Positions 8,236-44,555 of a stretch of 61,498 nucleotides of DNA are shown here, piece after piece. The notes below the pieces were generated by a model. It did no database searches, had not been told where the DNA came from, and was given only the letters and a program-made list of their open reading frames with translations. Source of the stretch: Candidatus Omnitrophota bacterium (GTDB lineage: Bacteria > Omnitrophota > Omnitrophia > Omnitrophales > Aquincolibacteriaceae); NCBI GenBank assembly GCA_903856085.1, contig CAIOAT010000020.1:1-61498 (forward strand), given 5' to 3'. Numbering within the stretch: the first letter of the stretch is position 1; each line of letters opens with the position of its first letter. A program made the position numbers and the translations under genes.

Positions 8236-8687
8236 TCTTTCTTCTCCGTTTCAGTGGATTTAAAACGAATATCTTTTTCCTGAGCCCTGAATGATTTCCG
8301 TTTCCCAAAGAACTCATCGAGGTGAAGCGTTTCTCGGAGATTTAATAACCGCTGCCTTGCGTTTAAGCGTTCCTCCTCATCCTGCGATATGACGTAACAC
8401 TTGATCGATATGGAGGCATAAACCCAGTGCATCAGAACCTCGACCGGCATCCCCGACAGAGACTGTCCAAGAAATTCATTTTGCCCCATGAGAAGAGAAG
8501 ATATGGTTTCCTTGGGCATTTGATACTTCAAGGCATTCCGCTCAAGAATATTTAACAGAAGCGTCGTCGTTTCGTTGACGAAATAAAAAGAGGTGAACGG
8601 AAAAATTCGGTTCTCCCAATGGACGTTGTTGGAGGCTTTGTCCAGATACGGGATGGACCCCTGAGGCTCCTTTACGTCAGCAAACAT
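8232..8687 (-). CDS. Hypothetical protein (about 151 aa)
   Basis: ORF track. The ATG at 8687 overlaps the end of the 40-aa small ORF (ATGTTTGCTGA). I recognise no motif. Confidence 0.5.
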   Translation of the reverse strand: MFADVKEPQGSIPYLDKASNNVHWENRIFPFTSFYFVNETTTLLLNILERNALKYQMPKETISSLLMGQNEFLGQSLSGMPVEVLMHWVYASISIKCYVISQDEEERLNARQRLLNLRETLHLDEFFGKRKSFRAQEKDIRFKSTETEKKE

Positions 8688-8799
8688 GGAGTTCGCCCCC
8701 AAGTTCCGCTTCCACTATGCGAATCCGCTTGCGGTACAGGCGATAAAGCGCGGCGCATCGTCTGGTGATCTTCCTAAATGTCTTCTTCTGGATTTTCAT
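8677..8799 (-). CDS. Small basic ORF (40 aa)
   Basis: Manual translation gives MKIQKKTFRKITRRCAALYRLYRKRIRIVEAELGGELHVC. Its ATG overlaps the TGA of the upstream 136-aa ORF (ATATGA), and GGAGG lies just upstream. Confidence 0.4.
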   Translation of the reverse strand: MKIQKKTFRKITRRCAALYRLYRKRIRIVEAELGGELHVC

Positions 8800-9206
8800 A
8801 TGCAACCTCCTGATTGTGGGTGTATGTCAAAGACATCGTAAAGGTCCTGAACGAAATCAAGGGCACTGCCTCTTTGCGAAGCCTTCACATTGGGAAGTTT
8901 TTGGACGAATCGTTTGAGCCAAAAAAAGACCCGGCGATATTGCTTCTGCTTTGAATCCATAAGCATGTGATGGTAAAGATCATCCAAGAAACAGCACACC
9001 CCGTTTACGACCCTCGCTTCGGGTTTATGCTGTTTGACTTGGATGAGAAAGATAAGGACCGTCATTTTGTTGTTGAAGTAGCCCTTGAACAGCTGCCCAA
9101 GAAGCCGCTCCTCGTTAAAATGACGATCCAACAAGCCCCGGATTGCCGTCCCGTTCGCTTCTTGGCTTGCTCTTTCTTTGTTATCGCTTATTTTTAGTTC
9201 GTTCAT
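8796..9206 (-). CDS. Hypothetical protein (136 aa), first gene of the minus-strand operon 9206->7523
   Basis: ORF track. GAGGA lies 8 nt upstream of the ATG at 9206. I recognise no motif. Confidence 0.5.
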   Translation of the reverse strand: MNELKISDNKERASQEANGTAIRGLLDRHFNEERLLGQLFKGYFNNKMTVLIFLIQVKQHKPEARVVNGVCCFLDDLYHHMLMDSKQKQYRRVFFWLKRFVQKLPNVKASQRGSALDFVQDLYDVFDIHPQSGGCI

Positions 9207-9385
9207 TTTCTTGTCCTCTACTCAGATGGATAGCATCCCGAGATTGGAAGAGCAAGGGTTTGTCCGGAAGTTCTTTATATGTTCTTTTTGGGTACACTTG
9301 TTAAACTGTTATTCTTGTGTTATCTTCTTAGTGGAATTAATGATGACCTTTTTTCTGTTTAAAAAAACTTTACTAGGAGGTGGTT

Positions 9386-10024
9386 ATGTACGAAGAAATT
9401 GGAAAAGACCTGGCTGAAAAGAAGATCGGCAAGCGGGCGATCCGCGCGCCACTCTGGGGAAAGGCCATTAAGTCCTTGTTGGTCCAGAAATCAGACACGC
9501 CTTCGCCGCTAACCGTGATCTGGCTAGCCAAGAAAACAGGGCTAAACGAAAAAAACCTCCATAACATTATCGCGGGCCGGGTGAAAGACCCGCCCTCTGA
9601 TAAGTTGGTTAGAATCTCGGACGCTTTTGGAATCTCGTTCTCTGATCTGGCGACACGAGCCATGGCCGAAGATCCAGGAAATTTCTTCGTGTGTGGTTAC
9701 GGGGAAAGAGGATTCATTGACTATCCGCAACACGGCTTCACCATTCAATCCCTGAGTCCGCAATCGAACAGTCAACGAGATTTCTTTTTGGGAAGGATGA
9801 CCCTGAAACCTTTCAAAGAACTTCGAAAGTGGCAGTTTAGGGAGAACTCGAGTGTCGCGATCTTCGTGGAATCAGGAACACTTGAAATAATTTATGGGGA
9901 ACGGAAGCGGGAAATCCACTCGAATGAGTCGGTTTATTTTGATGCGGGAGTGCCTCACAAAATCAAAAACATCGATTCCATTGAAGCGAAATTATTTATC
10001 GTAACTTGTCCGGCTCTTTTTTAA
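9386..10024 (+). CDS. XRE-HTH + cupin-domain transcriptional regulator
   Basis: The N-terminal HTH is LAKKTGLNEKNLHNIIAGRVKDPPSDKLVRISDAFG. The C-terminal cupin is VAIFVESGTLEIIYGERKREIHSNESVYFDAGVPHKIKN. AGGAGG lies 5 nt before the ATG at 9386. Confidence 0.8.
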   Translation: MYEEIGKDLAEKKIGKRAIRAPLWGKAIKSLLVQKSDTPSPLTVIWLAKKTGLNEKNLHNIIAGRVKDPPSDKLVRISDAFGISFSDLATRAMAEDPGNFFVCGYGERGFIDYPQHGFTIQSLSPQSNSQRDFFLGRMTLKPFKELRKWQFRENSSVAIFVESGTLEIIYGERKREIHSNESVYFDAGVPHKIKNIDSIEAKLFIVTCPALF

Positions 10025-10845
10025 GCTTTCTTTCTCAAAAGTTTGTGCTTAACGCACATCTTCTTGAGGACTTCGACGAGGACCTCAAGGTGTGCCGGTT
10101 TTGAGAAAAATTTATATCCTAACTTTCTGGCCTGTTCGACCTGTGCCGGGTCTTCAACGCCCGTGTAAATCACAAAGTCCTTCGGACAATGGCCTTCACC
10201 TGATTTCATGCGTTCGATTAGCTCTCCGCCCCACATATGAGGCATCTTGATATCGATAATCCCGATGTCAGGTTCGAATTCCAGCGAGGTTCTTAATGCT
10301 TCATCGCCTGCAAGAACCCACTTCACTTCAAAATGACAATCCCGGACATCTTCAGCTAGCGCTGGTCCCAGCAGCTCACACACTTCTATTTCATCGTCAA
10401 CGATCAATATCTTGGCGCAGGGTTCATAGCCAGACTCGATTTCAAGGGGGCTTTTTTCATCGCTCTTGCGCTCGATAACCGCCTCAATCCTGGCGTTAAA
10501 TTCCTTCATGCTGTAGGGCTTGGTCATAAACGCTTCAATACCTAAAGGTTCACATTCTTCTTTTTTATCACGAAGAGCAGTCAGAATAATCACGGGAAGA
10601 TTCGGAAAACGTTTGCGGATGGACTTCAACACTTCAATTCCACCCATGCCTGGCATTTTCAGATCAAGAACGATGAGGTCTATTTTCTCGCCGTATTCCT
10701 CGACGACTTTCAGAGCTTCCATCCCGCTTCCAGCGGTTAGGACTTTATAGCCAAGAGGTTCATACATTGTAGGGATGAACCAAAGCATATCTTCTTCATC
10801 ATCGACAATTAAAATAGTTCCTCTTATTTTTGGTATATCGACCAT
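10021..10845 (-). CDS. Response regulator with two tandem receiver (REC) domains and no output domain
   Basis: The first REC is ILIVDDEED..LIVLDLKMPGMGG..ILTA..KP. The second is KILIVDDEIE..IGIIDIKMPHMWG..YTG..SKP. Confidence 0.85.
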   Translation of the reverse strand: MVDIPKIRGTILIVDDEEDMLWFIPTMYEPLGYKVLTAGSGMEALKVVEEYGEKIDLIVLDLKMPGMGGIEVLKSIRKRFPNLPVIILTALRDKKEECEPLGIEAFMTKPYSMKEFNARIEAVIERKSDEKSPLEIESGYEPCAKILIVDDEIEVCELLGPALAEDVRDCHFEVKWVLAGDEALRTSLEFEPDIGIIDIKMPHMWGGELIERMKSGEGHCPKDFVIYTGVEDPAQVEQARKLGYKFFSKPAHLEVLVEVLKKMCVKHKLLRKKA

Positions 10846-10853
10846 AAACCCTC

Positions 10854-11234
10854 TCAGTTCTTTTTCTCTATCGCGGAGAAAATCGCTTTCTCAAGTTGTG
10901 ATAAGTCCGTTGGCTTATGCAAACAAAGCAAGGCTCCGCTGCGAATCGCCTTCGCATCCATATCGGAGTCATTAGAACCAGTGCAAAAAATTATTTTCTG
11001 CTCGGGTGCTTGCGCATGCACCTGCTGAATCACCGCTATGCCGCTCAAGCTGTCTTTCAAATGGGCATCGACGATAGCGATATCTGGCCTTTCTTGGAGA
11101 ATCAATTTTACTCCCTCGTGCCCATATACGGCTGTAATAACCTCATGCCCAAGCTCTCCGAAATAGCTCCTCATGAAATCCAGAAGTTCTTCTTCGTCAT
11201 CAACGAACAGGATTTTTGCCATCTTCTTGTCCAT
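10854..11234 (-). CDS. Single-domain CheY-like response regulator
   Basis: The sequence contains KILFVDDEEE..IAIVDAHLKD..FCTGS..HKP. Confidence 0.85.
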   Translation of the reverse strand: MDKKMAKILFVDDEEELLDFMRSYFGELGHEVITAVYGHEGVKLILQERPDIAIVDAHLKDSLSGIAVIQQVHAQAPEQKIIFCTGSNDSDMDAKAIRSGALLCLHKPTDLSQLEKAIFSAIEKKN

Positions 11235-13453
11235 TGCTTATGGGTATCAAAATGCGAAAGGCCGTACCCTTTCCGTACTCCGATTCCAAAAGAATTTTGC
11301 CTCGATGAGCATCGACCATCCGCCGAATAATATAAAGGCCAAGCCCCGTCCCTTTTTCCGCGCCTTTGGTGGTAAAGAAAGGGACGAAGAGCTTTTTTTT
11401 AGATTCTTCTGTCATACCAAGACCGTTATCGGCAATGGTGAACTCGACATATCGTTTGTCGCTGGACGTTGTTTCCTTGGCGGTAAGCCAAACAGCTCCT
11501 TTAGGAACTACGGCGGGCTTCTCAAGATTGCCCAATTTCCAAGCCGTTTCTTTCATCGTAAATGCATCGAAGGCGTTATCCAGCAAATTGAAAAGGATTT
11601 CTTCGATCTCACTCAGATTGCCGTGAACTTTCGGAAGATTGGCCTCAATTTCAAGCTTGAAATCAATGAGAGTTAAATCATGTTTGCATTCCCACAAGCG
11701 AAGACAGCTATCGATGGCTTCCGCTACACTCACAGGTTTGAAGCCTTCACTCAGTCGGCTGAAATCAAGCAAGCGTGCAACAATTTCTCCGCCATGGGCG
11801 CAATTTTTGTTGATGCTTTTGAGCAATTTCTCCATACTGGCTAAAACGCCTTCGATTCCTTCGTTTTCGACGTTCAATTCTTTCATATACTTTCTGAGGC
11901 GAGGGGAGACTGCTCATTATCATAATCTCTGCGCCGGCCTTCGTGAGGTTGAATCTGTTATTGACCTGATGGCCGATGCCGGATGCCATGGTGCCTAAAT
12001 CCGCCATTTTTGCCGCCTGAAAAAAATGAGTCTGTTGTTGCTCAAAATTTGTGAGAAAAATACAGTTCTCGATGGCAAGGGCTGCCTGATTGGCCAGAGT
12101 CGAAAGCGTATCAAGGTCGCTTTCGGAATAGAGACGTTTTGACTTTTTGTCGCCTAACACAATAAACCCAAGCAGTCGGTCCTGAACAAAACTCGGCACC
12201 ACCACCGCCGCATCCAGTCTTTCCATTTCCTGAATAACTTCGGCAGAAAGTTTCGAGGATGCAGTCCCTTGGGCTTGGATTTCTTCGAGGATTAATGGCG
12301 CTTTAGTTTCTCGAATATGTTGACTTAGGGCGGCGGTCTCGGCGATGCCATCGTTCCCTTGCTTGTGATGATCACCATGAGCCGCCTTGCAGATGAATTG
12401 TTCACCCTCGCTGTCTGAAAGAAATATGCGAGCGTGTGTGATTCGGATGGTTTTGGTGAGAATATGGACTATCAACCCTAACAGATGGTTCAGATCCTTG
12501 ATAAGAGTCATTCCTCTAGATGCCTGAAGCAGAGTTTGCTGATATGCCTTTTGTTCTCTTAAAAGAACCGCCTCTGCCCTGCGTTGGATAGTCAGATAAA
12601 TAAATGGGCCACTGAAACTTAACAAGCTGAATAATCCGGCGGGAAGCAACCACCAGTTAACACCTAATTGCCTTTCCAAAATACCTCGCATTTGGAAAAT
12701 CAAGAAGGCAGGAATTCCGACGACGAAGCAGTAAATCAAAACAAAAATACCCGTCCGAGTCACCGCAATCTGAATATCTAGCAATCGATGGCGGACGATG
12801 GCATAGGTCATTAGCAACGGATACAAAATTACAAAATACATCCCCCAAGGGAAAATGGGCCATCCAAATACGGGGAAAAAGGCTGTTGCTCCGCCCAAAA
12901 AACCAAACGAGGTGGCGGCAAACATATATACAAGTTGCAGTCGGCGCATTTGCCCAATATCTTTCCGCAAAAGAGCCTGCGCTTGAACCATAAACGCTTC
13001 GGCAATACACAGAAAGAAAGCTATCGTATAAACATAATATAGTGGAGCAACATCAGTGTAATAATGGAAAAATGGCTTCTGACTGGAAATCCGAACAATT
13101 AGGTCCTGCTTAAAAAAATTCAAAAATAAGAACGCCAAGAAAAGCGGATACCAAAAAAACAACTGCTTTTTGGTGCGGATAGAAACTTCGGTTAATTCAA
13201 AGGTGTAATGAAGAAATGTCGGTGGAATAAGAATGGCACCCAGGTAATGAATAATAAGCCAAGCTCGTGCACTTTGAAGGTTGTCAGCTGACACCACCAT
13301 CCCGAGGCCAAAACTCCAAACGGCTATCATGAGACTGCTGAGAGACCACAGCTGGTTAATTCGACGAGTTCTGTTTTTAACAAGGCAGAATATTCCAAAA
13401 AGCAAATAGCAGCAAGCGGAGGCGATGCAATAGAAACTAAAAATGCTACTCAT
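11200..13453 (-). pseudogene. Sensor histidine kinase (N-terminal 7TM + GAF + HisKA + HATPase_c) interrupted by a frameshift near 11886-11913
   Basis: ORF 11765..13453 carries the polytopic N-terminus, a GAF-like region and the H-box (MASGIGHQVNNRFN), then runs into junk. ORF 11200..11886, in another frame, carries the rest of the dimerisation domain and the ATP-binding domain (LLDNAFDAF..DNGLGM..GTGLGLYI). The downstream frame is open only from 11913 downward, and a GGGG/CCCC run lies at 11903-11906. Confidence 0.8.
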
Positions 13454-13470
13454 CGCACGCTCCGACCGTT

Positions 13471-15063
13471 TTAGAGGACTGGTTTGGTGGGGTTTCTGCC
13501 ATATTTATTATGAGTATCAACATATGTTCTATTAACCACAGCGGCAGCCGTTGGAAATTCTCCGGCTAATACGGCAGCAGCAATTATTTCTGCAAGCTTG
13601 TCGGATTTACCGTTTCCGAGACAGTCCATGAGATTTAAACATTCACGTTGGGTTCCCAAATGGGTACCTCCGCCGACCGTCCCTATTAACAAATTGTGAA
13701 GCGTGCAATCCCAATATAAATCTTTTCCGTTATTAACAATCTCGCTGGTGCCAGTACATGTATGAGCACTACTTAAATCGGCGGCATCTTGCCCGCACGC
13801 CAAAAAAATCGCAGCTATCCCATTAGAGGCATGAACATTAACCGCTCGAATGCCCGATGCCGTGCCGCACTCAATGCATCGGTCATTAAAGTCTTTCATT
13901 TGCTGGGCTGTAACGTGCAACATGTCCAACGCCTTAGAACAAACTACTCCTGACGCTTTAACAACTCTTCCATATCCTTGTTCGAGATTGGTTACTGAAA
14001 AATGTTTCACCCCACTAAAGTGGGACCTGAGATAAAAAGAACACTGAGTTTGAGATTCGATGTACTGGCACGCATTAAAAGACGCTTGGTTTATCATGTT
14101 TAAGCCGTGCGCATCTGCCGTATCATATTTGAATTTGAGCACATAGCTGTCCTTGATACGCCTCTGTTCAATCCCCAACAGAGTTGTATGCCGACTCCCT
14201 CCTTCCGTCACTTGTTTGATTTTCTCATAATTTTGATCGACAAATTTTTTAATCATTACATCTTCACCGTTCTTTATGGGAAACATAGGGGAAATGTGGA
14301 CCACTTTTGAAAGCACTTCGACATTAACACCGCCGCTCATATTGAGCAATCTGGCTCCAAGATCATACGTTAACAGCAGGGCCCCTTCCGTTGTAGCCAT
14401 TGGGACATGAAACTTGCCTTGAGCATGTTTTCCGTTAATTTGAAGAGGACCGATAACTCCAAGGGGAATTTGAATGATCCCCAGTGGATTTTCAACGTTG
14501 CCTTTCAAGGCATTGGTGTCATAAGTACAGCCTCGGATATGGCGAAGCTCCACATTCAATTTTCGGGATAAGATATCCGCCTTTTTCTCCAAACTTTGTC
14601 GGTCGTAAAGCTTTCTGATTTTTTTAAAACTTTGCTCGTCGGTTTCGTCAGCGGGCGGGGCTTCGAGAGTCTGCTGCGCATCGTAAGCTTTTTCGCATTC
14701 ATTAATTTTACTCAATAAATTCGGCGCATCAATGGGTTTGGAAACGTATTTCCAAGCCCCAAGCTGAAACACTTTCACGAGCGCAGATTCATCAGAATAC
14801 CCCGTCATGATGATGACGTTTTGCCTGTCCACCCTACCTGCTATTTCAAGGCCTCGTATCTTTTCCAAAACATCTGTTCCGTCAAGGCCGGGCATACGAA
14901 TATCCAGAAGAATGCAGAGGTAATTTCCTTTTCCGATTTTCTCTAAACCATCCTCCCCATTTTGGCAAACGTCTACATTCCAACCATTTTTAATAAAGAG
15001 GTTGGAAAGGGTTTTTAGCACGAGCGAGTCGTCATCAATGATGAGTATGCTTTTCCCTGTCAT
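13471..15063 (-). CDS. Receiver (REC) domain fused to an HMG-CoA-reductase-like catalytic domain
   Basis: The REC is MTGKSILIIDDD..ILLDIRMPGLDG..IIMTGYSD..SKP. The HMGR signatures are ENPLGIIQIPLGVIGPL..VPMATTEGALL, DTADAHGLNMIN, IGTVGGGTHLGTQ, AGEFPTAAAV and THNKYGRN. The start is at 15063, with GGGAGA upstream. Confidence 0.85.
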   Translation of the reverse strand: MTGKSILIIDDDSLVLKTLSNLFIKNGWNVDVCQNGEDGLEKIGKGNYLCILLDIRMPGLDGTDVLEKIRGLEIAGRVDRQNVIIMTGYSDESALVKVFQLGAWKYVSKPIDAPNLLSKINECEKAYDAQQTLEAPPADETDEQSFKKIRKLYDRQSLEKKADILSRKLNVELRHIRGCTYDTNALKGNVENPLGIIQIPLGVIGPLQINGKHAQGKFHVPMATTEGALLLTYDLGARLLNMSGGVNVEVLSKVVHISPMFPIKNGEDVMIKKFVDQNYEKIKQVTEGGSRHTTLLGIEQRRIKDSYVLKFKYDTADAHGLNMINQASFNACQYIESQTQCSFYLRSHFSGVKHFSVTNLEQGYGRVVKASGVVCSKALDMLHVTAQQMKDFNDRCIECGTASGIRAVNVHASNGIAAIFLACGQDAADLSSAHTCTGTSEIVNNGKDLYWDCTLHNLLIGTVGGGTHLGTQRECLNLMDCLGNGKSDKLAEIIAAAVLAGEFPTAAAVVNRTYVDTHNKYGRNPTKPVL

Positions 15064-15091
15064 GGCTTTCTCCCGGCATTTAATGACCGCA

Positions 15092-15379
15092 TTATAAAAG
15101 ACGCCAAAATTGGCCCCTTTGCCAAAACAAACAGAGCCCGACAAAAGCTCCGGTGACAGCAACGGCTAAAAAAAAGATCACTATTTTTATCGAGATTTTA
15201 TGCAGACCTTTTGTTTCTTTTTTGGAATCCGCCGCGAGCAAAAAGTGCGCTATTATAAAAAAAACAAGAAAGATAAAAGGGGGAACCGCATATTGCGGTG
15301 GATAAAAAGTTAGCGCAAGTATCAGGAATATTAACGCCAATACAATTAGCGAACGTACAAGAATCGTCTCTATTGACAT
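15092..15379 (-). CDS. Small membrane protein (95 aa, about 3 TM)
   Basis: ORF track. Hydrophobic segments include LIVLALIFLILALTF, FIFLVFFIIAHFLL and IVIFFLAVAVTGAFVGLCLF. It is the first gene of the two-component operon. Confidence 0.5.
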   Translation of the reverse strand: MSIETILVRSLIVLALIFLILALTFYPPQYAVPPFIFLVFFIIAHFLLAADSKKETKGLHKISIKIVIFFLAVAVTGAFVGLCLFWQRGQFWRLL

Positions 15380-15492
15380 ACCCCTCCCACCAAAATTGAC
15401 CTTCTATTCTGTCCCTTCTATTCTGTCTTTATGTATCGGACGTTTTGAGGGTATTCTAGAGCAGAAACCTAGAGGCGATACACTTAAATCTT

Positions 15493-16155
15493 TTAAGCCG
15501 CTGTCACAGAAACAAGCGGCGATCCAATCTCATCGAGCATTTCTCTGAATCTTGAGAATAGCTGGGATTCATTTTTTGATCGGATAAGCTCTAGAAGCCG
15601 ACGAAGATGGAAGTGCTTCAACATTGCTTGTTCCTTGTGGGTATTCAAAAAATCTTGAATTGGAGCTGGAAGTTCGAGGGTTTTGAGAACTCTGGCAATG
15701 TAAGACCAATCTTCTCCGGTAATCTCAGAGAGACCGCGAACGCTTTTAATACCTGTATCTTCGCGTAATTTGTGATAGTAGGCTGCTTTTTTGAGGGGGA
15801 AGTTTTCGAGACGGCGGAGATAGGCTTGATGCTTTTCTAGAATTCTCTGATCAATAGTGTCAGCTTGCGCAAGATCGCTCGGCCTCTCGCCAAAAACAAA
15901 CTGTTGTCGCCGCTTCTGGAAGATGCTATAAAATGCCTGTTGGTATACAAAAACACGTGAATAGGTATCTTTGCTTTCTGATTCGTCGAGAGTAAGCAAA
16001 GGGACCCCAGTTTTTTTCAAATTCGAGGTGGATGGAAATTGAAGGGAGCGCTTGTTCATAGCTATGGCTGATGCCGTGGTTATAAGTGCGGCTAGCCGAC
16101 CGGAGTTGCATTCCGGCGAAGGCGCCAATTCCCCTCGTCCTCTTTTTTTCTGCAC
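15493..16155 (-). CDS. Protein with a ParB/KorB-like HTH segment
   Basis: SVRGLSEITGEDWSYIARVLKTLELPAPIQDFL resembles the ParB HTH followed by the LP..IQ motif. The start is uncertain (GTG at 16155 or ATG at 16059). Confidence 0.45.
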   Translation of the reverse strand: MQKKRGRGELAPSPECNSGRLAALITTASAIAMNKRSLQFPSTSNLKKTGVPLLTLDESESKDTYSRVFVYQQAFYSIFQKRRQQFVFGERPSDLAQADTIDQRILEKHQAYLRRLENFPLKKAAYYHKLREDTGIKSVRGLSEITGEDWSYIARVLKTLELPAPIQDFLNTHKEQAMLKHFHLRRLLELIRSKNESQLFSRFREMLDEIGSPLVSVTAA

Positions 16156-16185
16156 AAGGGTTCAAAAAGGAACCGTTCTTAACAT

Positions 16186-16725
16186 ATGAACCGCCTTATT
16201 GCGATCAACAGAATCTCGGACATCCCGGCGAAATACCGGAATACCCCGATCGGACGTCTCCTGGAATATCAGAACCTGGATCGCCCTTTCAAACCTTATT
16301 CCAAGGCACAGCTTCTCATCGGCATGTGCATGGACAGCCGAAAGCTGTTACATATCCCCGACAACTTTGCGTTCGTTCTGCGCACGGGCGGCGCCAACCT
16401 CCGTTACAGTGAGTTCAAAGTCTCTTATGCAATCGCGGTCGGCGGCGTCTCTCACATCGCCCTCATCACGCATGACCACTGCGGCATGGTCAACCTCCCC
16501 GCCCGCAAAGATCTGTTCATCAAAGGTCTCGTCAAAAAAGGTGGCTGGAAGAAAAAAGACGCTGAGGAGCATTTCAGGAATTTTTCGCACCTTTTCGAGA
16601 TTGGCAATGAAACGAATTTTGTCTTAAGTGAGGTAAAACGGCTTCGGCTTCGATATCCCAAAGTCAAAGTCACGCCCATGTTCTATAAAGTTCATAACAG
16701 TCAACTTTTTTTATTAAAGGAATAA
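16186..16725 (+). CDS. Beta-class carbonic-anhydrase-like protein
   Basis: CMDSR ... THDHCGM matches the beta-CA zinc-ligand pattern CxDxR...HxxC. Confidence 0.65.
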   Translation: MNRLIAINRISDIPAKYRNTPIGRLLEYQNLDRPFKPYSKAQLLIGMCMDSRKLLHIPDNFAFVLRTGGANLRYSEFKVSYAIAVGGVSHIALITHDHCGMVNLPARKDLFIKGLVKKGGWKKKDAEEHFRNFSHLFEIGNETNFVLSEVKRLRLRYPKVKVTPMFYKVHNSQLFLLKE

Positions 16726-16730
16726 AACCC

Positions 16731-17957
16731 ATGACGAAACCTGTGGACCCCAGCGAAAAAACATTTCTGGCCCGAATCGAGATCCTGAATCAGCGTATCC
16801 TGGAAGCCAAAAAACATGACCTCTATCCTTACATGCATTCTTCGGATGCCGTGGAGGGAGTCCACGTCACGGTTCATGGACGTCGAATGCTTCAATTTGC
16901 ATCCTATTCCTATCTCGACCTCTTGGGTCATCCTAAAATCAACGCCGCCGCAAAAAGGGCTATCGATGAGTTTGGAACAGGCACCCATGGCGTTCGCTTC
17001 CTTGCGGGAACCACCCGAATCCATGTAGAACTTGAAAAAAAGATCGCTTCGTTTAAGAAAACCGAGGCTGCCGTCGCCGTCGCCTCAGGTTATGGCGCGA
17101 ATTTTGGAACAATCTCCGCCCTGCTCGGCCGCCATGATGTGGTCATTTCCGACAAGATCAACCACGCGAGCATTGTCGATGGCTGCATCCTGTCACGGGC
17201 CCAATTCGTCCGCTTTGAGCATAACGATATGGCGGCCCTTGAAACAGCCCTTGGCGAAGCCCCCAAGAAAGGAACCAAACTTGTGGTGGTGGACGCTGTC
17301 TTCAGCATGGACGGCGACATCATCAACCTTCCCGAAGTGATCAAACTTTGCCGGAAATTCAAAGCCCTGCTCATGATCGATGAAGCACATTCTCTTGGCG
17401 TTCTTGGGAAAAAAGGCCACGGCCTCGAAGAACATTTCGGGATCGATCCGACGGAAGGCCTCATCGATATCAGGATGGGAACCTTAAGCAAAACGATCCC
17501 GAGCATCGGAGGCTACATCGCCGGAAGCACCAAGCTCGTCAATTATCTAAGACATTCCATCCGGCCTTTTATTTTCTCCGCCGCGCTTCCTCCCCCTTCA
17601 GCCGCGGCCGCCAAAACCGCCTTTGAAGTCATCGAAGATGAGCCCTGGCGGGTGGAAAAACTTCAAAAGAACGCGGACTACTTTCTGAAGACTCTTCAGG
17701 CCCGGGGTTTCGACACACTCAAGAGCCAAACCGCGATCGTTCCGATCGTTATCGGGAACGAGGCCAAAGCCCTGGAGATGACACGCCTCACGAGAAATGA
17801 AGGGATCTTCATCGTACCGATCTTGCCTCCTGCCGTACAGCCCAACACCACCCGGATCCGCGCAACCGTAACCGCGGGCCATTCGCTTCAGGAGATCGAC
17901 CGCGCGATCAATACGTTCGAGAAGATCGCAAAATCTCTTGGCATCTTACGTCCCTAG
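16731..17957 (+). CDS. PLP-dependent alpha-oxoamine synthase (BioF/Kbl/Spt family)
   Basis: Motifs present are SYSYLDLLGHP, GTGTHGVRFLAGT, SDKINHASIVDG, FSMDGD, IDEAHSLGVLG and GTLSKTIPSIGG (the PLP lysine). Confidence 0.9.
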   Translation: MTKPVDPSEKTFLARIEILNQRILEAKKHDLYPYMHSSDAVEGVHVTVHGRRMLQFASYSYLDLLGHPKINAAAKRAIDEFGTGTHGVRFLAGTTRIHVELEKKIASFKKTEAAVAVASGYGANFGTISALLGRHDVVISDKINHASIVDGCILSRAQFVRFEHNDMAALETALGEAPKKGTKLVVVDAVFSMDGDIINLPEVIKLCRKFKALLMIDEAHSLGVLGKKGHGLEEHFGIDPTEGLIDIRMGTLSKTIPSIGGYIAGSTKLVNYLRHSIRPFIFSAALPPPSAAAAKTAFEVIEDEPWRVEKLQKNADYFLKTLQARGFDTLKSQTAIVPIVIGNEAKALEMTRLTRNEGIFIVPILPPAVQPNTTRIRATVTAGHSLQEIDRAINTFEKIAKSLGILRP

Positions 17958-17984
17958 CTCTTTTAAAACACTCGACATGCGATC

Positions 17985-18761
17985 ATGAACAAAGGATACG
18001 TACTGATCACCGGAGCCTCTGAGGGCATAGGTTATGAATTCGCCAAGCTTTTTGCCCATCACGGTTTTCCCCTTGTACTTGTCGCCCGCAACAAAACCCG
18101 TTTAGACTCACTCGCCAAAGAATTAACCGCGACCGATCACGTTGACGTAAGAACAATCGTAAAAGATCTGAGCCTCCCTACCGCTGCGGAGGAGCTAAAA
18201 ACCGCGATCGATGATCAAAAGATCGCCATCGAAATTCTGATCAACAATGCCGGCTTTGGCGTCCACGGCCTTTTCCATCATGCTGATTGGAAAGCCACCG
18301 AAGCCATGCTAAATCTCAACATGATCACCTTGACCCATTTGACACGGCTTTTACTCCCCGACATGGTCGGAAAAGATCGCGGAAAGATCCTGAATGTAGC
18401 ATCGACGGCTGCTTTCCAGCCGGGTCCCCTGATGGCCTGTTATTTCGCTTCCAAAGCCTATGTTCTTTCTTTCTCCGAAGCCCTCGCCAACGAACTTTCA
18501 GGGACCGGCGTCACAGTCACGGCTTTTTGCCCCGGCCCCACACGGACACAATTTCAGAAACGCTCCAACACAGAAAATATCCGAGAGAATTCTTTCGCCA
18601 TGGACGCGGCAACAACCGTAGCCGTGGCTTACAACGGCCTGATGATGGGTAAAACTCTCGTGATCCCAGGATTCACGAACAAACTTTTGGCAATCTTGGT
18701 CCGTCTCGCCCCACGAAAGCTTGTGATACGAATAACGCGTTATCTTGAGGAAAACGGTTAA
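17985..18761 (+). CDS. Classical short-chain dehydrogenase/reductase (SDR)
   Basis: Motifs present are ITGASEGIG (TGxxxGIG), NNAG and the YFASK catalytic YxxxK. Confidence 0.9.
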   Translation: MNKGYVLITGASEGIGYEFAKLFAHHGFPLVLVARNKTRLDSLAKELTATDHVDVRTIVKDLSLPTAAEELKTAIDDQKIAIEILINNAGFGVHGLFHHADWKATEAMLNLNMITLTHLTRLLLPDMVGKDRGKILNVASTAAFQPGPLMACYFASKAYVLSFSEALANELSGTGVTVTAFCPGPTRTQFQKRSNTENIRENSFAMDAATTVAVAYNGLMMGKTLVIPGFTNKLLAILVRLAPRKLVIRITRYLEENG

Positions 18762-18868
18762 CAGTTAGAATTCAATCCCTGTTAAAAACCCCTTGCAAAT
18801 TCACTCCACATCGGTAGACTTCACCCCGTACCAGCAATCAAATCCTCTATACAAAAGGAGTTACATCC

Positions 18869-20656
18869 ATGTCTACACCGCTTGAAAGATGGGTAGAAGA
18901 ACAAGCCAAACTGACCAAGCCTTCCAAGATCCATTGGTGCGATGGCACGGAATCTGAGGCTAAAAAGCTGATCGAGATCGGCATCAAGGAAGAAACGATC
19001 AACGGTCATCCCGTCTTTCAAAAACTGAGCGACAAACATTGGCCGAACGCCTATTACCACCAATCTCATCCCAATGACGTCGCCCGAACCGAACAGTTGA
19101 CCTTCGTTTGTCACCCGGAGAAAGAAACTGCGGGTCCTAACAACAACTGGATGGATCCAAAGGAAGCCAAGGAAAAACTCACAAAACTTTTTGACGGCTG
19201 CATGAAAGGCCGCACGATGTACGTCATGCCGTACATGATGGGTCATCCAAAATCTCCTTACGCCAAAGCCTGTGTCCAGATCACGGACAACAGCTATGTC
19301 GCCGTGAGCATGCGCATTATGACCCGCATGGGCAAGGAAGCACTTGACCGCATCGGGAGCTCTGAAAATTTCGTCCGGGGTCTTCACTCGGTCGGGGACC
19401 TCAATCCCGAACGCCGTTTCATCATGCATTTCCCCAAGGAGAACCTCGTTTGGAGTTTTGGCTCGGGCTATGGCGGGAATGCCCTGCTCGGTAAAAAATG
19501 TTTCGCGTTACGCATCGCTTCCTGCATGGGGCAAAAAGAAGGCTGGCTTGCCGAGCACATGCTCATCATGGGGATTGAAGATCCCAAGGGCCAGGTCACT
19601 TACGTTGCGGCGGCTTTCCCCTCGGCCTGCGGCAAGACGAATCTCGCCCTGATGCAATCCGCTTTACCAGGCTACAAAGTCTGGACCTTGGGCGATGACA
19701 TCGCATGGCTTAATGTCGGCCCAGACGGAAGGCTTTATGCCATCAATCCTGAAGCCGGATTTTTCGGGGTCGCTCCCGGAACTTCGCTTAAAACGAATCC
19801 GAAGATGATCGAGACTCTCAAGAACAACAAATTCTTTCCCACGCTCTACACCAATACCGCGATCGATAACGACATGAACGAACCGTGGTGGGAAGGTCTG
19901 GATGGCGCGATTCCGAAAAACGTCACCGACTGGCAGGGTCAGGCTTGGGATCCTTCCAAAGGAACCAAGGCCGCACATGCAAATTCCAGGTTCACGGTGT
20001 CGATCCTCAATTGTCCCACGCTTTCCAAGGAATTCGACAACCCCCAGGGCGTCCCGATCTCAGCCATTATCGTGGGTGGTCGGCGCAGCAAGCTGATCCC
20101 GCTGGCGATGGAGGCCTTCAGCTGGCAGCACGGCGTATTCCTCGGCACCCGGACCGGCTCCGAGACCACCGCCGCAGCCGCAGGACAGGTCGGCGTGATC
20201 CGCCGGGACCCGATGGCCATGCTCCCCTTTTGTGGTTACAACATGGGAGATTATTTTAGCCATTGGCTCGATGTCGGAAAGAAACTCAAGCATCCGCCCA
20301 AGATTTTTTCTGTCAATTGGTTCCGCACAGACGAATCCGGCAAATTCATGTGGCCGGGCTTTGGCGACAATATCCGCGTGATCAAATGGATCATCGACAG
20401 GGTTCAAGGCAAAGTTGCCGCAAAAGAAACTGCCCTCGGACTTCTCCCGGAATTGAAAGATCTCGATCTTTCGGGGCTCAATATTCCCCGCGAAACCGTG
20501 GACAAACTTTTCGCGATCGACCCTTCGGAATGGACTGCGGAGCTTCAGGATATTGAGAAATATCTTTCGCAATTCGGACCCCATACGCCGGAAGCGATCT
20601 GGCAGGAATATCGTGATCTTGCGGATAAATTAGGCCAAACCGCAGGAAAAAAATAG
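18869..20656 (+). CDS. pckG: GTP-dependent phosphoenolpyruvate carboxykinase
   Basis: The protein has the typical length (595 aa) and the AFPSACGKTNLA kinase-1a motif of PEPCK-GTP. AAGGAG lies upstream of the ATG. Confidence 0.95.
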   Translation: MSTPLERWVEEQAKLTKPSKIHWCDGTESEAKKLIEIGIKEETINGHPVFQKLSDKHWPNAYYHQSHPNDVARTEQLTFVCHPEKETAGPNNNWMDPKEAKEKLTKLFDGCMKGRTMYVMPYMMGHPKSPYAKACVQITDNSYVAVSMRIMTRMGKEALDRIGSSENFVRGLHSVGDLNPERRFIMHFPKENLVWSFGSGYGGNALLGKKCFALRIASCMGQKEGWLAEHMLIMGIEDPKGQVTYVAAAFPSACGKTNLALMQSALPGYKVWTLGDDIAWLNVGPDGRLYAINPEAGFFGVAPGTSLKTNPKMIETLKNNKFFPTLYTNTAIDNDMNEPWWEGLDGAIPKNVTDWQGQAWDPSKGTKAAHANSRFTVSILNCPTLSKEFDNPQGVPISAIIVGGRRSKLIPLAMEAFSWQHGVFLGTRTGSETTAAAAGQVGVIRRDPMAMLPFCGYNMGDYFSHWLDVGKKLKHPPKIFSVNWFRTDESGKFMWPGFGDNIRVIKWIIDRVQGKVAAKETALGLLPELKDLDLSGLNIPRETVDKLFAIDPSEWTAELQDIEKYLSQFGPHTPEAIWQEYRDLADKLGQTAGKK

Positions 20657-20693
20657 CTCCTCGCGAGGACGCCGTAAAATCCGGCGAGAAATT

Positions 20694-20738
20694 AAAAGGC
20701 AGGCGCCACTGTTCGCAGGGGTACCTGCCTTTTTTTTA
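20694..20738. terminator. Bidirectional intrinsic terminator between convergent pckG and metH
   Basis: The sequence is AAAA-GGCAGG..(GCAGG-GGTA)-CCTGCC-TTTTTTTT, a GC stem flanked by an A-run and a T-run. Confidence 0.6.
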
Positions 20739-23700
20739 TACGCTGAAGTACTTCGCCTGGGGATGATGAACAATGATGGCGGAAGTGGATTGCTCCGGCG
20801 CCATCTGGAAGGTTTCGCTTAAAGTAATCCCGATCTTCTCCACCGGAAGAAGCTGGAAAAGTTTTTTCTGGTCCTCAAGATTCGGGCAGGCCGGATATCC
20901 AAAGCTATAACGCGACCCCTGATACCCTTGCCGGAAGATCTCATCTTTCGTACGTTTATCTTGTTTATCGATCCCAAGATCGCGGCGGATCAGAAGATGT
21001 GTGTACTCCGCCAAGGCCTCGGCAGCCTCGACGGAAAGTCCGTGAAGATAAAGATATTCCGTGTACTTATTCGCCTTAAAGAGTTTCTGTTCCATCTCAC
21101 TGGCGCGCTTGCCGACGGTCACCGAGTGGAAAGCCACGACGTCAAGCTCTCCCCCCTTCGGCCTGAAAAAATCCGCGATGCACTGATAAGGTTCCCGTGA
21201 TTGCCGCGGAAATGTGAAGCGGGTCAACTCACTCTGAGCGGCCCCATCCAACACCACGAGGTCATCTCCCTCGGAATAACATTTGTAAAAACCATAGATG
21301 ACTTTCGGCTCGAGGATTTTCTCGCGAACCGTCTGGTCCTTGAATCGCTCGAAAATAGGCTCCACATTCTCCTGAAGATAAAGTTCAAATTCGCGCGGAG
21401 TCCTTTCCCCATGCTTGAACTGCCACTGAGATCGGTAAAGCGCGATCTTGTTGACCCACGGGAATACATCCTGCATACGGATATTCTTCAGAATGCGGTA
21501 ACCGAAGAACGGCGGTTTTGGAATGGGATTATCACGATGGACATGAAAAGAGGGTCCCTTTTGAACGACACCTTGAATGGTGCCAGGCACGAAAGCTTTC
21601 GGAAGGGTCCCCGGTACCGTTTGAGGCTGGGAGATTTTAGCCTCCTGTTTATTCAGAACTAGAACGTCCGGCTTGGGGGCTGGGATCTCGGGTTTTTCTT
21701 GTTTTTCCAATTTTTCTGGAACCGACCCTCTTTTGATCCCCTCCATGATCTTAAGGCCGGAAAAAGCATCTCGACCGTAATGAACGGGGCCCTGATAGAC
21801 CTGGGCAAGATCACGCTCCACATAGCGTTCCGTGAGTGCCGCACCTCCGCAGATCACCGGCAACTTGATCCCTCGCCGGTTCATTTCCTCAAGATCTTCT
21901 TTCATGACAAGCGTCGATTTCACGAGAAGCCCGGAAAGCCCGATCGCATCGGCATGGTTCTCGACCGCGGCTTTCACGATCGCATCCACCGGTTGTTTGA
22001 TCCCGATATTGAAGACCTTGTAGCCGTTATTGGTGAGGATGATGTCGACTAAGTTCTTCCCGATGTCGTGAACGTCGCCCTTGACGGTCGCAAGCACGAT
22101 CCTGCCACGCTCCTGCCCCTCTTTTTTCTCCATGAACCGCTCGAGATATGCCACGGCCTTTTTCATGACTTCCGCCGATTGGAGCACGAACGGAAGCTGC
22201 ATCTTGCCGGCACCGAAAAGCTCCCCGACCTGTTTCATGCCATCCAACAGAAACTCATTGATGATCTCAAGCGGCTTGTATTTCTTGAGGGCCTCATCAA
22301 GATCCGCGCCAAGACCGTCCGCACTTCCGTCGAGGATGTGATTTTTCAGGATCTCCTCGATCGTACCAGCCCTTTCACGCGGCTGTTCGGCAATTCCCTG
22401 TTTCTTCTCAAAATGTGCGATGAACTCCTGGAGAGGATCCTTCCCGTCGATCCATTTGTTGTGGAGCAGCCGTTTCGCAGCCTCAAGGTCATCCGCCGCG
22501 ATCTTGAAAAGGGGCACTATCTTTTTGGCATGTACGATTGCGGCATCCAGTCCCGCTTCCAGACATTCATGAAGGAAAACACTGTTTAAAATCTGGCGCG
22601 CGTGCGGTGCGAGCCCGAAGGAAATATTACTGACCCCGAGAATGGTGTGAACCCCGGGGAGTTCTTTTTTAAGACGGCGGATCGCCGCGATCGTTTCGGG
22701 TGCCGCATTGCGAAACTCTTCACTGCCGCTTCCAAGCGTAAAAGTCAGCAGATCGAAGAAAAGATCTTCCGGCCGGATACCGTATTGCTGGGTCACGATC
22801 TGATAAATCCTCTTGGCGATACGAAGCTTTTCTTCCCGCGTCTTCGCCATGCCTTTTTCATCGATCGTCAGCACCACCAACGCAGCCCCGTACTTTTTCG
22901 CCATAGGACAGATCTTGCGCAGCCGCTCGCCACCATCCTCAAGATTGATCGAATTGATGACGGGTTTTCCCGCAACATGCTTCAGAGCCTCCTCGATCAC
23001 CTCAAATTCCGTCGAATCGATCATCACGGGTACCGTCACCTGCTGGTTGAAACGGCTGATCGCTTCGACCATATCCTTCTTTTCATCGCGGCCGACATAA
23101 GCCACGCAAAGGTCCACAAGATGCGCGCCTTCTTTTACGGCTTCGCGCGCCACACCCACAATCGCGTCATAATCTTCACGTTCCAAGAGCTGCTTGAATT
23201 TTTTACTGCCGTTCGCATTGGTCTGTTCCCCCACAAGAAGGGGCGCGGGTTTCTGCGTGTAGTTCGCAATCCCATAGAGACTCGCGCAGGACGGCTCATG
23301 TTTAGGCTCCCGCTTTTTCGGAGCACATTTTCCGACCCGATCCACCACAGCCTTCAGATGTTCGGGCGTGGTGCCGCAGCAGCCGCCCACGATCGAGACT
23401 CCGAACTCCTTGACGAACCGCTCATGAAAATCTGCGAGTTCCTTGGGAGTCAGATGATAATGGGCCACGCCTCCGACATTCTCCGGAAGACCGGCATTCG
23501 GCAGCACCGAAATATGTTTCACAGAGCTCTCACAAAGCGTGCGCACGTGTTCCGCCATTTCGGCGGGACCTGTCGCGCAATTCATCCCGATCACATCCAC
23601 CGGGAACATTTCAAGCGTGGCGATCACGGCCTGAATGTCTGTCCCGAGCAGCATGGTGCCCATAGATTCCAAAGTAACCTGAGCCATGATCGGAAGTCTT

Positions 23701-44198: not shown

Positions 44199-44555
44199 TT
44201 GCCTCGGCCTTGCTTGATTTCTAAAAGGATTTATAAAAAGATAACATACAATTAAGTTTCGACAAGGGCGTGGCACATTTATATTTGATAAAACTTCGTC
44301 AATCGAATGATTTTATCAATAGGAATATGGAGATCATTTTCAATTCTTAATGCTATAAATTACATTAAAATACGAATAGCAATAAATAGCATGATATAGC
44401 TATTTAAATCACACGGCTAGCGTAGAAGGACCGCGAACGCAGCAGGAAAAACAAGGAACTTAGAATCTGGATGCGCTTTAGGACATGAAGGGTTTACACC
44501 ACCAGAGGCTTAACTTAGCAGAACTAGCTTTAATTGAATTTCAAAGGCTCTTACG

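Follow-up and report, generated by a model that had tools for sequence, protein, structure and literature searches.

A receiver domain fused to a class-I HMG-CoA reductase fold and encoded beside a 7TM histidine kinase: a candidate two-component output in Omnitrophota

The window analysed here is a 61,498-nucleotide stretch of Omnitrophota DNA, and on its minus strand, at 13471-15063 (stop codon included), lies a gene for a protein in which a response-regulator receiver (REC) domain is followed by a domain resembling HMG-CoA reductase (HMGR). The gene was delimited from the list of open reading frames, Pfam matches and a Shine-Dalgarno sequence; the reading frame begins with an ATG at 15063, ends at 13471, and encodes 530 residues plus a stop codon. 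The ATG at 15063 is favoured as the start because a GGGAG Shine-Dalgarno sequence lies 7-8 nt upstream and homologues of 96% and 87% identity are likewise 530 residues long. A longer alternative beginning with a TTG at 15162 is unlikely.

The receiver domain occupies residues 4-120 (14704-15054, minus strand) and is delimited by Pfam, residue conservation and the beta-alpha pattern of an AlphaFold2 (AF2) model. Pfam Response_reg matches at residues 6-120 (E 6.8e-26), and the receiver residues Asp10/11/12, phospho-acceptor Asp54, Thr87 and Lys109-Pro110 are all found; among 30 full-length homologues, Asp10/11/12, Asp54, Thr87 and Lys109 are each either invariant or shared by at least 90%. An extended helix alpha-5 and a short flexible linker follow at residues 121-141 (14641-14703, minus strand), where the AF2 model is helical over 113-134 and disordered, with pLDDT below 50, at 132-138. 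The remainder, residues 142-530 (13474-14640, minus strand), is a reductase domain of the class-I HMGR fold, assigned from Pfam, PDB sequence matches (6hr7 and 1dq8), Foldseek and residue mapping. Pfam HMG-CoA_red (PF00368) matches at residues 158-523 over profile positions 2-368 of 368 (E 8.3e-85), and both domain matches are far above chance. The AF2 model has a mean pLDDT of 85.6, and its top structural matches in Foldseek are both class-I HMGRs, the archaeal 6hr7 (TM 0.88) and the human 1dqa (TM 0.87). The fusion of a receiver domain, with its DD, phospho-acceptor D, T and K present, to a complete HMGR-like domain had been proposed in an earlier note, and the full-length Pfam matches, the conserved receiver residues and the class-I fold bear this out. 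The linker of about 70 residues described there is too long, as the HMGR helices begin at residue 142 and the Pfam match at residue 158, which leaves approximately 10-25 residues.

The reductase gene appears to be the first of an operon. A histidine kinase gene of HisKA_7TM-GAF-HATPase architecture lies 17 nt downstream (11200-13453, minus strand) with a GGAG Shine-Dalgarno sequence before its ATG at 13453. In the window this gene is split into two reading frames, each recognised by Pfam, by a 1-nt indel in a run of four C residues near 11905-11908; tblastn with the intact 753-residue kinase orthologue of locus L090 places the frame switch at 11891-11904. The reductase of L090 is the homologue with 87% identity to the window protein. 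The frameshift may reflect either an inactive local system or an assembly error. The next gene, encoding a single-domain response regulator of 126 residues (10854-11234, minus strand; Pfam Response_reg E 1.3e-19), starts before the kinase gene ends, and the gene order is alike on the P0003 contig and at locus L009. The last gene of the apparent operon encodes a 274-residue tandem REC-REC protein with two Pfam Response_reg stretches and no output domain (10021-10845, minus strand); L090, L009 and the P0003 contig likewise have this gene following the kinase. A convergent gene (9380-10024, plus strand) encodes a regulator with Pfam Cupin_2 and HTH_26 domains; it has an identical position and orientation on the P0003 contig and a related gene in L009, and is possibly associated with the module. 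Promoter and terminator matches around the operon are not above shuffled expectation.

Residue mapping shows that Glu226, Lys353, Asp426, His518 and Asn414 correspond to human Glu559, Lys691, Asp767, His866 and Asn755, such that the catalytic Glu, Lys, Asp and His, for which the earlier note had proposed scoring by alignment, are all kept. The HMGR motifs quoted in that note are all in the sequence, although the Glu in ENPLG corresponds to human E528 and is not catalytic; the catalytic residue, E559, lies in MATTEG and is Glu226 here. E559, K691, D767, H866 and N755, together with the DAxGxNM and GTVGGGT motifs, are conserved in essentially all of approximately 125 family members, and the catalytic residues and Asn755 hardly vary across family sequences down to about 37% identity. 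The intact Glu226, Lys353, Asp426, His518 and NADPH motifs speak for an active enzyme rather than a pseudo-enzyme, and because all of the catalytic residues are kept, a two-component system could plausibly use the domain as an enzymatic output.

A different pattern is seen in the acyl pocket. The class-I HMGR residues R590, S684, D690, K692 and K735 are contact points for the HMG moiety or statins (PMC9500038), and the corresponding residues in the window protein are Ile257, Arg346, Val352, His354 and Asp394, the last of these in an ambiguous alignment with Arg395 adjacent. Relative to human HMGR the substitutions are R590I, S684R, D690V, K692H, L862Y and M655H, with Lys735 lost; those flagged in the earlier note are thus real, DAMG to DAHG being M655H and DKK to VKH being D690V with K692H. 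The remodelled pocket comprises Leu235, His256, Ile257, His319, Arg346, His348, Val352, His354, Asp394, Thr505 and Tyr514, and the remodelling is family-wide. Among 126 family sequences, position 590 is I, L or V in 123, position 684 is R in 124, position 690 is V or I in 124, position 692 is H in 86 and K in 23, position 568 is L in 77, and position 862 (Tyr514 in the window protein) is Y in 105 and F in 16, or 121 together. R568, R590, N686, D690, K691 and K692 are kept in all 35 canonical class-I sequences. The window protein scores 233.1 bits against TIGR00533, the NCBIfam equivalog for NADPH-dependent HMGR, and does not pass the cut-off of 441.8. Because the pocket is rebuilt, the substrate is most likely another acyl-CoA or acyl-ACP rather than HMG-CoA. 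This pocket differs from the simply hydrophobic one described for FcrA, an HMGR-type fatty acyl-CoA reductase of Ca. Promineifilum breve and Natronomonas pharaonis (PMC11948995, ISME J 2025); it gains Arg346 and His256, His319, His348 and His354, and the substrate could therefore carry an anionic or polar group. The invariant Arg at position 684 might substitute for Lys735 in carboxylate binding.

The REC and HMGR fusion is rare. It is represented by at least 33 clusters at 90% identity among the 120 matches listed, and a full-length match is seen in only about three of the best 150 representatives from a library of 1.84 billion proteins. Metagenome-assembled genomes with the gene include GCA_030698625.1 and Ca. 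Omnitrophus fodinae ASOC01. Searches for REC with HMGR, PilZ with HMGR, Omnitrophota with mevalonate, and the architecture by Pfam names returned no relevant paper in the searchable literature, which agrees with the suggestion in the earlier note that this would be an unusual output for a two-component system. In databases its relatives are named either 'HMG-CoA reductase' or simply 'response regulator'. Some carry PilZ, REC+PilZ or ACP+PilZ in place of REC, and the two motifs for c-di-GMP binding (RxxxR and [DN]xSxxG) are both present in 14 of the 17 PilZ forms. In a neighbour-joining (NJ) distance tree without support values, rooted on canonical sequences, the REC/PilZ HMGR-like family is a separate clade within which REC, PilZ, REC+PilZ and no-domain forms are interleaved; a midpoint root was discarded as it fell inside this heavily sampled family. 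The window protein is 35-38% identical alike to archaeal HMGR, a FadD-fused FcrA-like group and a clade linked to ACP and ketosynthase genes, and the family is an undescribed branch of the HMGR fold. In the collection of species genomes, a single-protein query gave no match and the loci were recovered by an alignment-based rescan; N-terminal extensions in stop-to-stop reading frames at high-GC loci were excluded as mostly read-through artefacts. The plasmid collection contains no relative above 36% identity, and matches on Alteromonas and Sinorhizobium plasmids are other HMGR homologues in unrelated contexts.

Genome comparisons show that pairing with a 7TM kinase is near-obligate. A HisKA_7TM kinase gene adjoins the gene in 19 of 21 independent family contexts, and the start and stop codons of the two genes often overlap. 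In an unbiased scan of species-representative genomes, a HisKA_7TM kinase is encoded just downstream at all eight signature-positive loci but at none of 72 other HMGR loci (Fisher p 3e-11). The linkage is present whether or not the HMGR-like protein bears a REC domain. The family members L003 and L094 lack a kinase in their vicinity; the reading frames that follow them were considered as stand-alone 7TM domains and rejected, as they encode unrelated soluble proteins.

Some of the wider neighbourhoods contain genes of lipid-type metabolism; no pathway genes are consistently downstream across the family loci. L001, L006 and L009 each have, next to the gene, an ACP and a ketosynthase whose Cys-His-His residues are intact; in P0117 the enzyme itself bears a fused ACP domain, and L001 encodes REC-thioesterase and REC-ketosynthase fusions. 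A FadL/TodX channel gene is directly upstream in L013, L014 and L019. In the window no ketosynthase, ACP, thioesterase or FadL gene is near the operon. Mevalonate genes are absent from both the larger reading frames of the window, as the earlier note had also observed, and the annotated family neighbourhoods. The annotated neighbourhoods also lack a WS/DGAT gene, no beta-oxidation genes are seen in the family neighbourhoods, and we found no paper in the searchable literature on an HMGR acting in reductive release with ACP and ketosynthase.

A scenario that we consider reasonably probable is that the protein is a phosphorylation-switched, four-electron acyl-CoA or acyl-ACP reductase acting as the output of the adjacent kinase. 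The protein would be a response regulator with an enzymatic output, in which a REC domain and short linker precede a class-I HMGR-fold thioester reductase dependent on NAD(P)H, encoded at the head of a putative operon with the 7TM GAF histidine kinase, the single REC and the REC-REC protein. We infer a reductive reaction, in which an acyl thioester would be converted to an aldehyde and then to a primary alcohol. The membrane kinase would sense a membrane or lipid-related cue and phosphorylate Asp54 of the receiver; phosphorylation would alter receiver dimerisation or its packing on the N-terminal helices of the HMGR domain, and this could switch the enzyme, as the active sites of known HMGRs lie at subunit interfaces. 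In relatives, equivalent control would be exerted by c-di-GMP through PilZ, replacing or added to REC. A more speculative extension, which we regard as unlikely, is that the reductase and the kinase are paired as synthase and receptor of one lipid-derived signal, which would be an aldehyde, a diol or a fatty alcohol produced from acyl-ACP or acyl-CoA. Production of the signal would be gated post-translationally by its receptor through REC or by c-di-GMP through PilZ, with FadL providing outer-membrane passage.

Three other explanations were weighed. The earlier note had raised the idea of a mevalonate pathway under phosphorelay control, such that the protein would be a genuine HMGR and the fusion would regulate isoprenoid synthesis. 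The full-length Pfam match, the class-I fold and the intact catalytic tetrad and cofactor motifs are all compatible with this, and the invariant Arg684 could in principle bind the HMG carboxylate. However, positions 590, 684, 690, 692 and 735 are replaced family-wide, of which R590, D690 and K692 are invariant in the 35 canonical sequences; the TIGR00533 score is well short of its cut-off, mevalonate genes are absent from the window and annotated neighbourhoods, and one Omnitrophota genome encodes a separate HMGR homologue with canonical R590, D690 and K692 (L037). FcrA moreover provides an example of a homologue without HMG-CoA activity (PMC11948995), and with this evidence together a true HMGR is very improbable. 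The alternative offered in the earlier note, an HMGR-derived NAD(P)H/CoA-binding output, comes near the reading favoured here.

The reaction could instead run oxidatively, with a hydrophobic alcohol or aldehyde imported from outside, in some relatives via FadL, and converted to acyl-CoA, and the 7TM kinase sensing that compound and turning on its catabolism. HMGR chemistry is reversible in principle, as established for class-II degradative HMGRs that work oxidatively; a sensor kinase with a catabolic enzyme is a common layout, and FadL/TodX is directly upstream at the three loci noted above. Set against this are the ketosynthase, ACP and thioesterase neighbours and the fused ACP, which point to carrier-protein biosynthesis, the lack of beta-oxidation genes in the neighbourhoods, and the reductive, NADPH-dependent activity of FcrA (PMC11948995), and we consider the oxidative direction improbable. 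The last explanation is that the HMGR-like domain is not flux-carrying and is mainly a module that binds NAD(P)H or an acyl thioester as ligand and informs the phosphorelay, as might fit a kinase linkage that persists with or without REC, the absence of pathway genes shared downstream across loci and the lack of output domains in the other response regulators of the operon. Near-invariance of the four catalytic residues and Asn755 to about 37% identity is hard to explain without catalysis, and the ACP and ketosynthase partners imply substrate delivery; we consider this explanation very improbable.

The switched thioester reductase favoured here has consequences for annotation, as the labels 'HMG-CoA reductase' and 'response regulator' are both misleading for the REC/PilZ HMGR-like proteins, and to infer a mevalonate pathway from such proteins, in Omnitrophota or in comparable uncultured phyla, is probably wrong. 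Together with FcrA and the ACP-ketosynthase-linked clade, the family would suggest that bacteria have diversified the class-I HMGR fold into thioester-to-alcohol reductases with differing pockets. A metabolic oxidoreductase with its own REC or PilZ domain (and, in L001, a ketosynthase and thioesterase likewise) would place lipid-type biosynthesis under direct post-translational control by phosphorelay and c-di-GMP. The near-obligate pairing also provides an entry point to the ligand of HisKA_7TM, a sensor domain that is widespread yet uncharacterised. A synthase-receptor pair, if true, would give Omnitrophota, Elusimicrobiota, Lentisphaerota and further little-studied phyla a new type of circuit for signalling between cells or at the envelope.

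Among more distant analogies, the Rpf/DSF and CqsA/CqsS systems resemble this one in function only, in that the gene of a fatty-acyl-thioester enzyme neighbours that of a multi-pass membrane sensor kinase. The kinase of the Rpf system restrains the synthase by way of a receiver domain, and c-di-GMP-linked response regulators are part of the circuit. The synthases have no sequence relationship to the window protein, however, and the kinase sensor here is HisKA_7TM plus GAF. Response regulators with enzymatic outputs (CheB, PleD/WspR, RpfG and PorX) also have an intact REC N-terminal to an enzyme and an adjoining histidine kinase gene, but an HMGR-fold metabolic oxidoreductase as the output was not found in the literature searched. 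Eukaryotic HMGR is phosphorylated by AMPK at a C-terminal Ser, a mechanism unlike that of a receiver domain. Canonical class-I HMGRs (human 1dq8/1dqa, Arabidopsis 7uli and Methanothermococcus 6hr7) share the fold (TM 0.87-0.88), the tetrad, DAxGxNM, GTVGGGT and the C-terminal helix with the catalytic His; the window protein differs in its 29-35% identity, its replaced HMG-binding residues, a score below the NCBIfam equivalog cut-off, its receiver domain and the lack of a mevalonate-pathway context.

The closest characterised relative is FcrA, a class-I HMGR homologue in which the catalytic tetrad is kept and positions 684, 735 and 862 are changed, with Ser684 replaced by Glu in N. pharaonis, Lys735 by a small residue and Leu862 by a bulky one; its substrate is fatty acyl-CoA, which it converts to alcohol, and it shows neither reduction of HMG-CoA nor inhibition by statin (PMC11948995). 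The window protein and FcrA are alike in their class-I fold, in keeping the catalytic Glu, Lys, Asp and His, in changes at the same three positions with a bulky aromatic at 862, in being annotated as HMGR without mevalonate genes (for the window protein, within the window and the annotated neighbourhoods), in the common presence of extra N-terminal domains (ACP-containing ones included), and in a four-electron thioester-to-alcohol reduction that for the window protein is predicted only. They differ in chemistry at position 684, which is Arg346 rather than the Glu of N. pharaonis FcrA, and at position 735, which is Asp394 (in the ambiguous alignment beside Arg395) rather than a small residue. 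R568, R590, N686, D690 and K692 are replaced here, whereas the FadD-fused FcrA-like group keeps them, and in the NJ tree the family lies apart from that Glu684-bearing group at about 36% identity, FcrA itself being compared by description only. The N-terminal addition is REC or PilZ here but Lad or FadD+ACP in FcrA, and the partner is a 7TM kinase rather than WS/DGAT, with no wax-ester or ether-lipid context in the annotated neighbourhoods.

The query is a 530-aa open reading frame on the reverse strand (15063-13471), whose ATG at 15063 is preceded at 7-8 nt by a Shine-Dalgarno sequence (GGGAG); its nearest database homologues (96% and 87% identity) are both 530 aa long. Pfam matches place a Response_reg domain at residues 6-120 (E 6.8e-26) and an HMG-CoA_red domain at residues 158-523 (E 8.3e-85), with the entire profile of the latter covered. 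The top solved relative is the archaeal HMGR 6hr7 (E 5e-60), followed by plant and human HMGR, and an AlphaFold2 model made from 30 full-length homologues (mean pLDDT 85.6) superimposes on 6hr7 and on human HMGR complexes with TM scores of 0.87-0.88. The receiver residues Asp10/11/12, Asp54, Thr87 and Lys109-Pro110 are present and are kept in homologues. The fusion of a receiver to a complete HMGR-like domain, as first read from the sequence, is therefore real, and each half is complete. The linker is not the roughly 70 aa proposed in the earlier note, since in the model the HMGR helices start at residue 142 and disorder is confined to residues 132-138.

To distinguish an enzyme from a pseudo-enzyme, we aligned the query with its top 120 database homologues, three HMGRs of solved structure and the HMGR homologues of 80 genomic loci. 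The catalytic residues E559, K691, D767 and H866 (human HMGR numbering, used throughout unless a query residue is named) are kept in essentially all aligned sequences, as are N755, H752 and the DAxGxNM and GTVGGGT motifs. This conservation argues against a degenerate domain, and the pseudo-enzyme reading fails. With the numbering anchored on D767, K691 and H866, the catalytic Glu is that of MATTEG (query Glu226), and the Glu of the ENPLG motif picked out in the earlier note corresponds to human E528.

The acyl pocket is a different matter. In class-I HMGRs, R590, S684, D690, K691, K692 and N755 contact the HMG moiety or statins and K735 salt-bridges the HMG carboxylate (PMC9500038), and R568, R590, N686, D690, K691 and K692 are invariant in all 35 canonical sequences of our dataset. 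The pocket of the query and its relatives (n=126; hereafter the family) departs from this in a fixed pattern: R568 is Leu in 77 (query Leu235), T589 is His in 122 (His256), R590 is Ile, Leu or Val in 123 (Ile257), M655 is His or Gln (His319), S684 is Arg in 124 (Arg346), N686 is His in 94 (His348), D690 is Val or Ile in 124 (Val352), K692 is His in 86 and Lys in 23 (His354), and L862 is Tyr or Phe in 121 (Tyr514). Lys is also missing at position 735 (query Asp394), a position of ambiguous alignment with an Arg next to it. The NCBIfam equivalog model for NADPH-HMGR gives the query 233 bits, short of its cut-off of 441.8, and no mevalonate-pathway gene is found among the larger open reading frames of the window, in agreement with the first reading. 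The proposal that phosphorelay controls the mevalonate pathway here is thus not supported.

The strongest contextual signal is pairing with a 7TM sensor kinase. On the same strand, 17 nt beyond the reductase gene, lies a HisKA_7TM-GAF-HATPase histidine kinase gene (13453-11200), and after it come genes for a single-REC protein of 126 aa (11234-10854), whose start overlaps the kinase end, and, 8 nt further on, a REC-REC protein of 274 aa (10845-10021); a convergent HTH-cupin gene bounds the far end of the operon. A 1-nt indel in a C4 run at about 11905-11908 splits the kinase into two frames, which could mean that the assembly is wrong here, that the gene is a pseudogene or that the run is a slippage site; L090, the orthologous locus, has an unbroken 753-aa kinase. 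An unbiased scan in which each species is represented by one genome gave 80 HMGR-homologue loci, and eight of these, from Omnitrophota, Elusimicrobiota, Nitrospirota, a Clostridia MAG, Ca. Makaraimicrobium and Bryobacterales, carry the family residue signature. A HisKA_7TM kinase lies immediately downstream in all eight (one gene away in L026) and in none of the remaining 72 (Fisher p 3e-11). Adding contigs from exact protein look-up, the kinase is present in 19 of 21 independent family contexts, alike for REC-fused, PilZ-fused and unfused forms, and start and stop codons often overlap; in the two exceptions (L003 and L094) the neighbours are unrelated soluble proteins. Genes 3' of the kinase encode single-REC, REC-REC and REC-kinase proteins, one NtrC-type regulator and one GAF-HD protein.

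Among other features of the window, we note a small hydrophobic 95-aa open reading frame just upstream of the reductase gene (15092-15379, reverse strand; not conserved in L090) and a terminator-like hairpin (15132-15152) upstream of the reductase ATG at 15063. An alpha-oxoamine-synthase-family PLP enzyme (16731-17957, forward), with a best match to a serine palmitoyltransferase model and a further match to a CqsA/LqsA-type autoinducer synthase model, both below cut-off, precedes a short-chain dehydrogenase (17985-18761, forward); across other loci, these two genes are not conserved neighbours of the reductase. An uninterrupted 6637-aa open reading frame (24363-44276, reverse) has no Pfam match in its N-terminal 1759 aa.

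In the 62-sequence tree of the close subfamily, members with REC, PilZ, REC+PilZ or no fused domain are intermixed, and 14 of 17 PilZ forms carry both c-di-GMP-binding motifs (RxxxR and [DN]xSxxG), so the catalytic core appears to have been put repeatedly under a second-messenger or phosphorelay switch. Two single chains, each with a 7TM kinase directly after it, are a REC + PilZ + HMGR-like triple fusion (P0039; L091 118-2055) and an ACP + PilZ + HMGR-like protein (P0117; L006 809-2950). The active sites of known HMGRs form at subunit interfaces and receivers commonly work through phosphorylation-driven dimerisation; since the modelled query linker is short (an extended alpha-5, then about 8 disordered residues), a reasonable mechanism is that the receiver would control assembly or the HMGR N-terminal helices.

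Substrate hints come from the neighbourhoods of relatives. In L009 and L006 the reductase gene adjoins genes for an ACP and for a FabF-type ketosynthase whose Cys-His-His triad is intact; both genes are also present in the L001 cluster (8618-21587; Omnitrophota MAG GCA_030698625.1), where a separate N-terminal REC is found on the reductase, on a 4HBT thioesterase and on a ketoacyl synthase, alongside two ICMT/PEMT-type methyltransferases, a 7TM kinase and further REC proteins. In three distant family members, the gene directly 5' of the reductase encodes a FadL/TodX outer-membrane channel for hydrophobic molecules (L013 8620-9921, L014 7857-9128, L019 8066-9478). LemA-family genes are a further recurrent feature (L005, L011). 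A second non-canonical HMGR-like clade (F684, G686, E690, R692), from Acidobacteriota, Verrucomicrobiota and Planctomycetota (L016-L018, L020, L022 and about 30 more loci from the species-genome scan), has a ketosynthase pair (KS and a KS-like, CLF-type gene) ahead of it in nearly all loci that include upstream sequence, with ACP detected in some; in L017 (2895-14889) it lies among ACP, LolA-like, MMPL, FabA-like and FAD-enzyme genes, a cluster that resembles the aryl-polyene type. Together these contexts point to lipid- or polyketide-type acyl-CoA or acyl-ACP thioesters as substrates of the non-canonical HMGR-fold reductases. None of the ketosynthase, ACP, thioesterase or FadL genes is found in the window itself and the family pocket is richer in Arg and His than that described for the fatty acyl-CoA reductase FcrA, so the substrate may be anionic.

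The best-supported reading is that the query is a predicted phosphorylation-switched acyl-thioester reductase of HMGR fold; its family, hitherto undescribed, is conserved as a module together with a 7TM sensor kinase. In an unlikely, more speculative version, such a module would pair a lipid-signal synthase with its receptor and include built-in feedback. The REC + HMGR architecture is rare, with 33 clusters at 90% identity among the 120 matches listed; a library of 1.84 billion 50%-identity representatives has only 459 proteins at E 1e-30 or better, and of its best 150 matches only about three extend over the full length (P0005, P0124, P0126). Among the loci listed from 185,579 species genomes, Ca. 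Omnitrophus fodinae (66%) has the sole homologue above 45% identity. Database names for family proteins are 'response regulator', 'hypothetical protein' and 'HMG-CoA reductase', and no description of the architecture was found in the literature searched.

FcrA, the closest characterised relative, is a class-I HMGR homologue that retains the four catalytic residues and is changed at S684 (Glu in Natronomonas), at the HMG-salt-bridging Lys (printed Lys795) and at L862 (bulky Trp); it converts long-chain acyl-CoA into fatty alcohol using NADPH, has no activity on HMG-CoA and is insensitive to simvastatin (PMC11948995, ISME J 2025). Bacterial 'class-I HMGRs' are mostly FcrA, many from organisms without a mevalonate pathway, and FcrA is extended N-terminally by a lipid-carrier domain (Lad) or by FadD+ACP; the paper makes no mention of receiver domains, PilZ or histidine kinases (PMC11948995). 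A FadD-fused, FcrA-like group in our dataset (AMP-binding + HMGR; for example L083, 1006 aa) has Glu684 and Phe862 and retains R568, R590, N686, D690 and K692, five residues that the family replaces. By neighbour joining, the family (124 sequences) and the second non-canonical clade described above, linked to ACP and ketosynthase (36 sequences), each form a single clade, with canonical and FcrA-like sequences in separate groups, and the query reductase domain is 35-38% identical to every other group. HMGR homologues in non-mevalonate contexts also occur on plasmids: one has an AMP-binding enzyme and an SDR as neighbours (L092, Alteromonas pBGP9) and another lies between acyl-CoA carboxylase subunits (L093, Sinorhizobium pMl1). 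Two kinds of protein already known are combined in the query, the response regulator whose output is an enzyme and the neofunctionalised HMGR-type reductase, of which FcrA is an example; judged against the published description of FcrA, the family shares its evolutionary logic yet is distinct.
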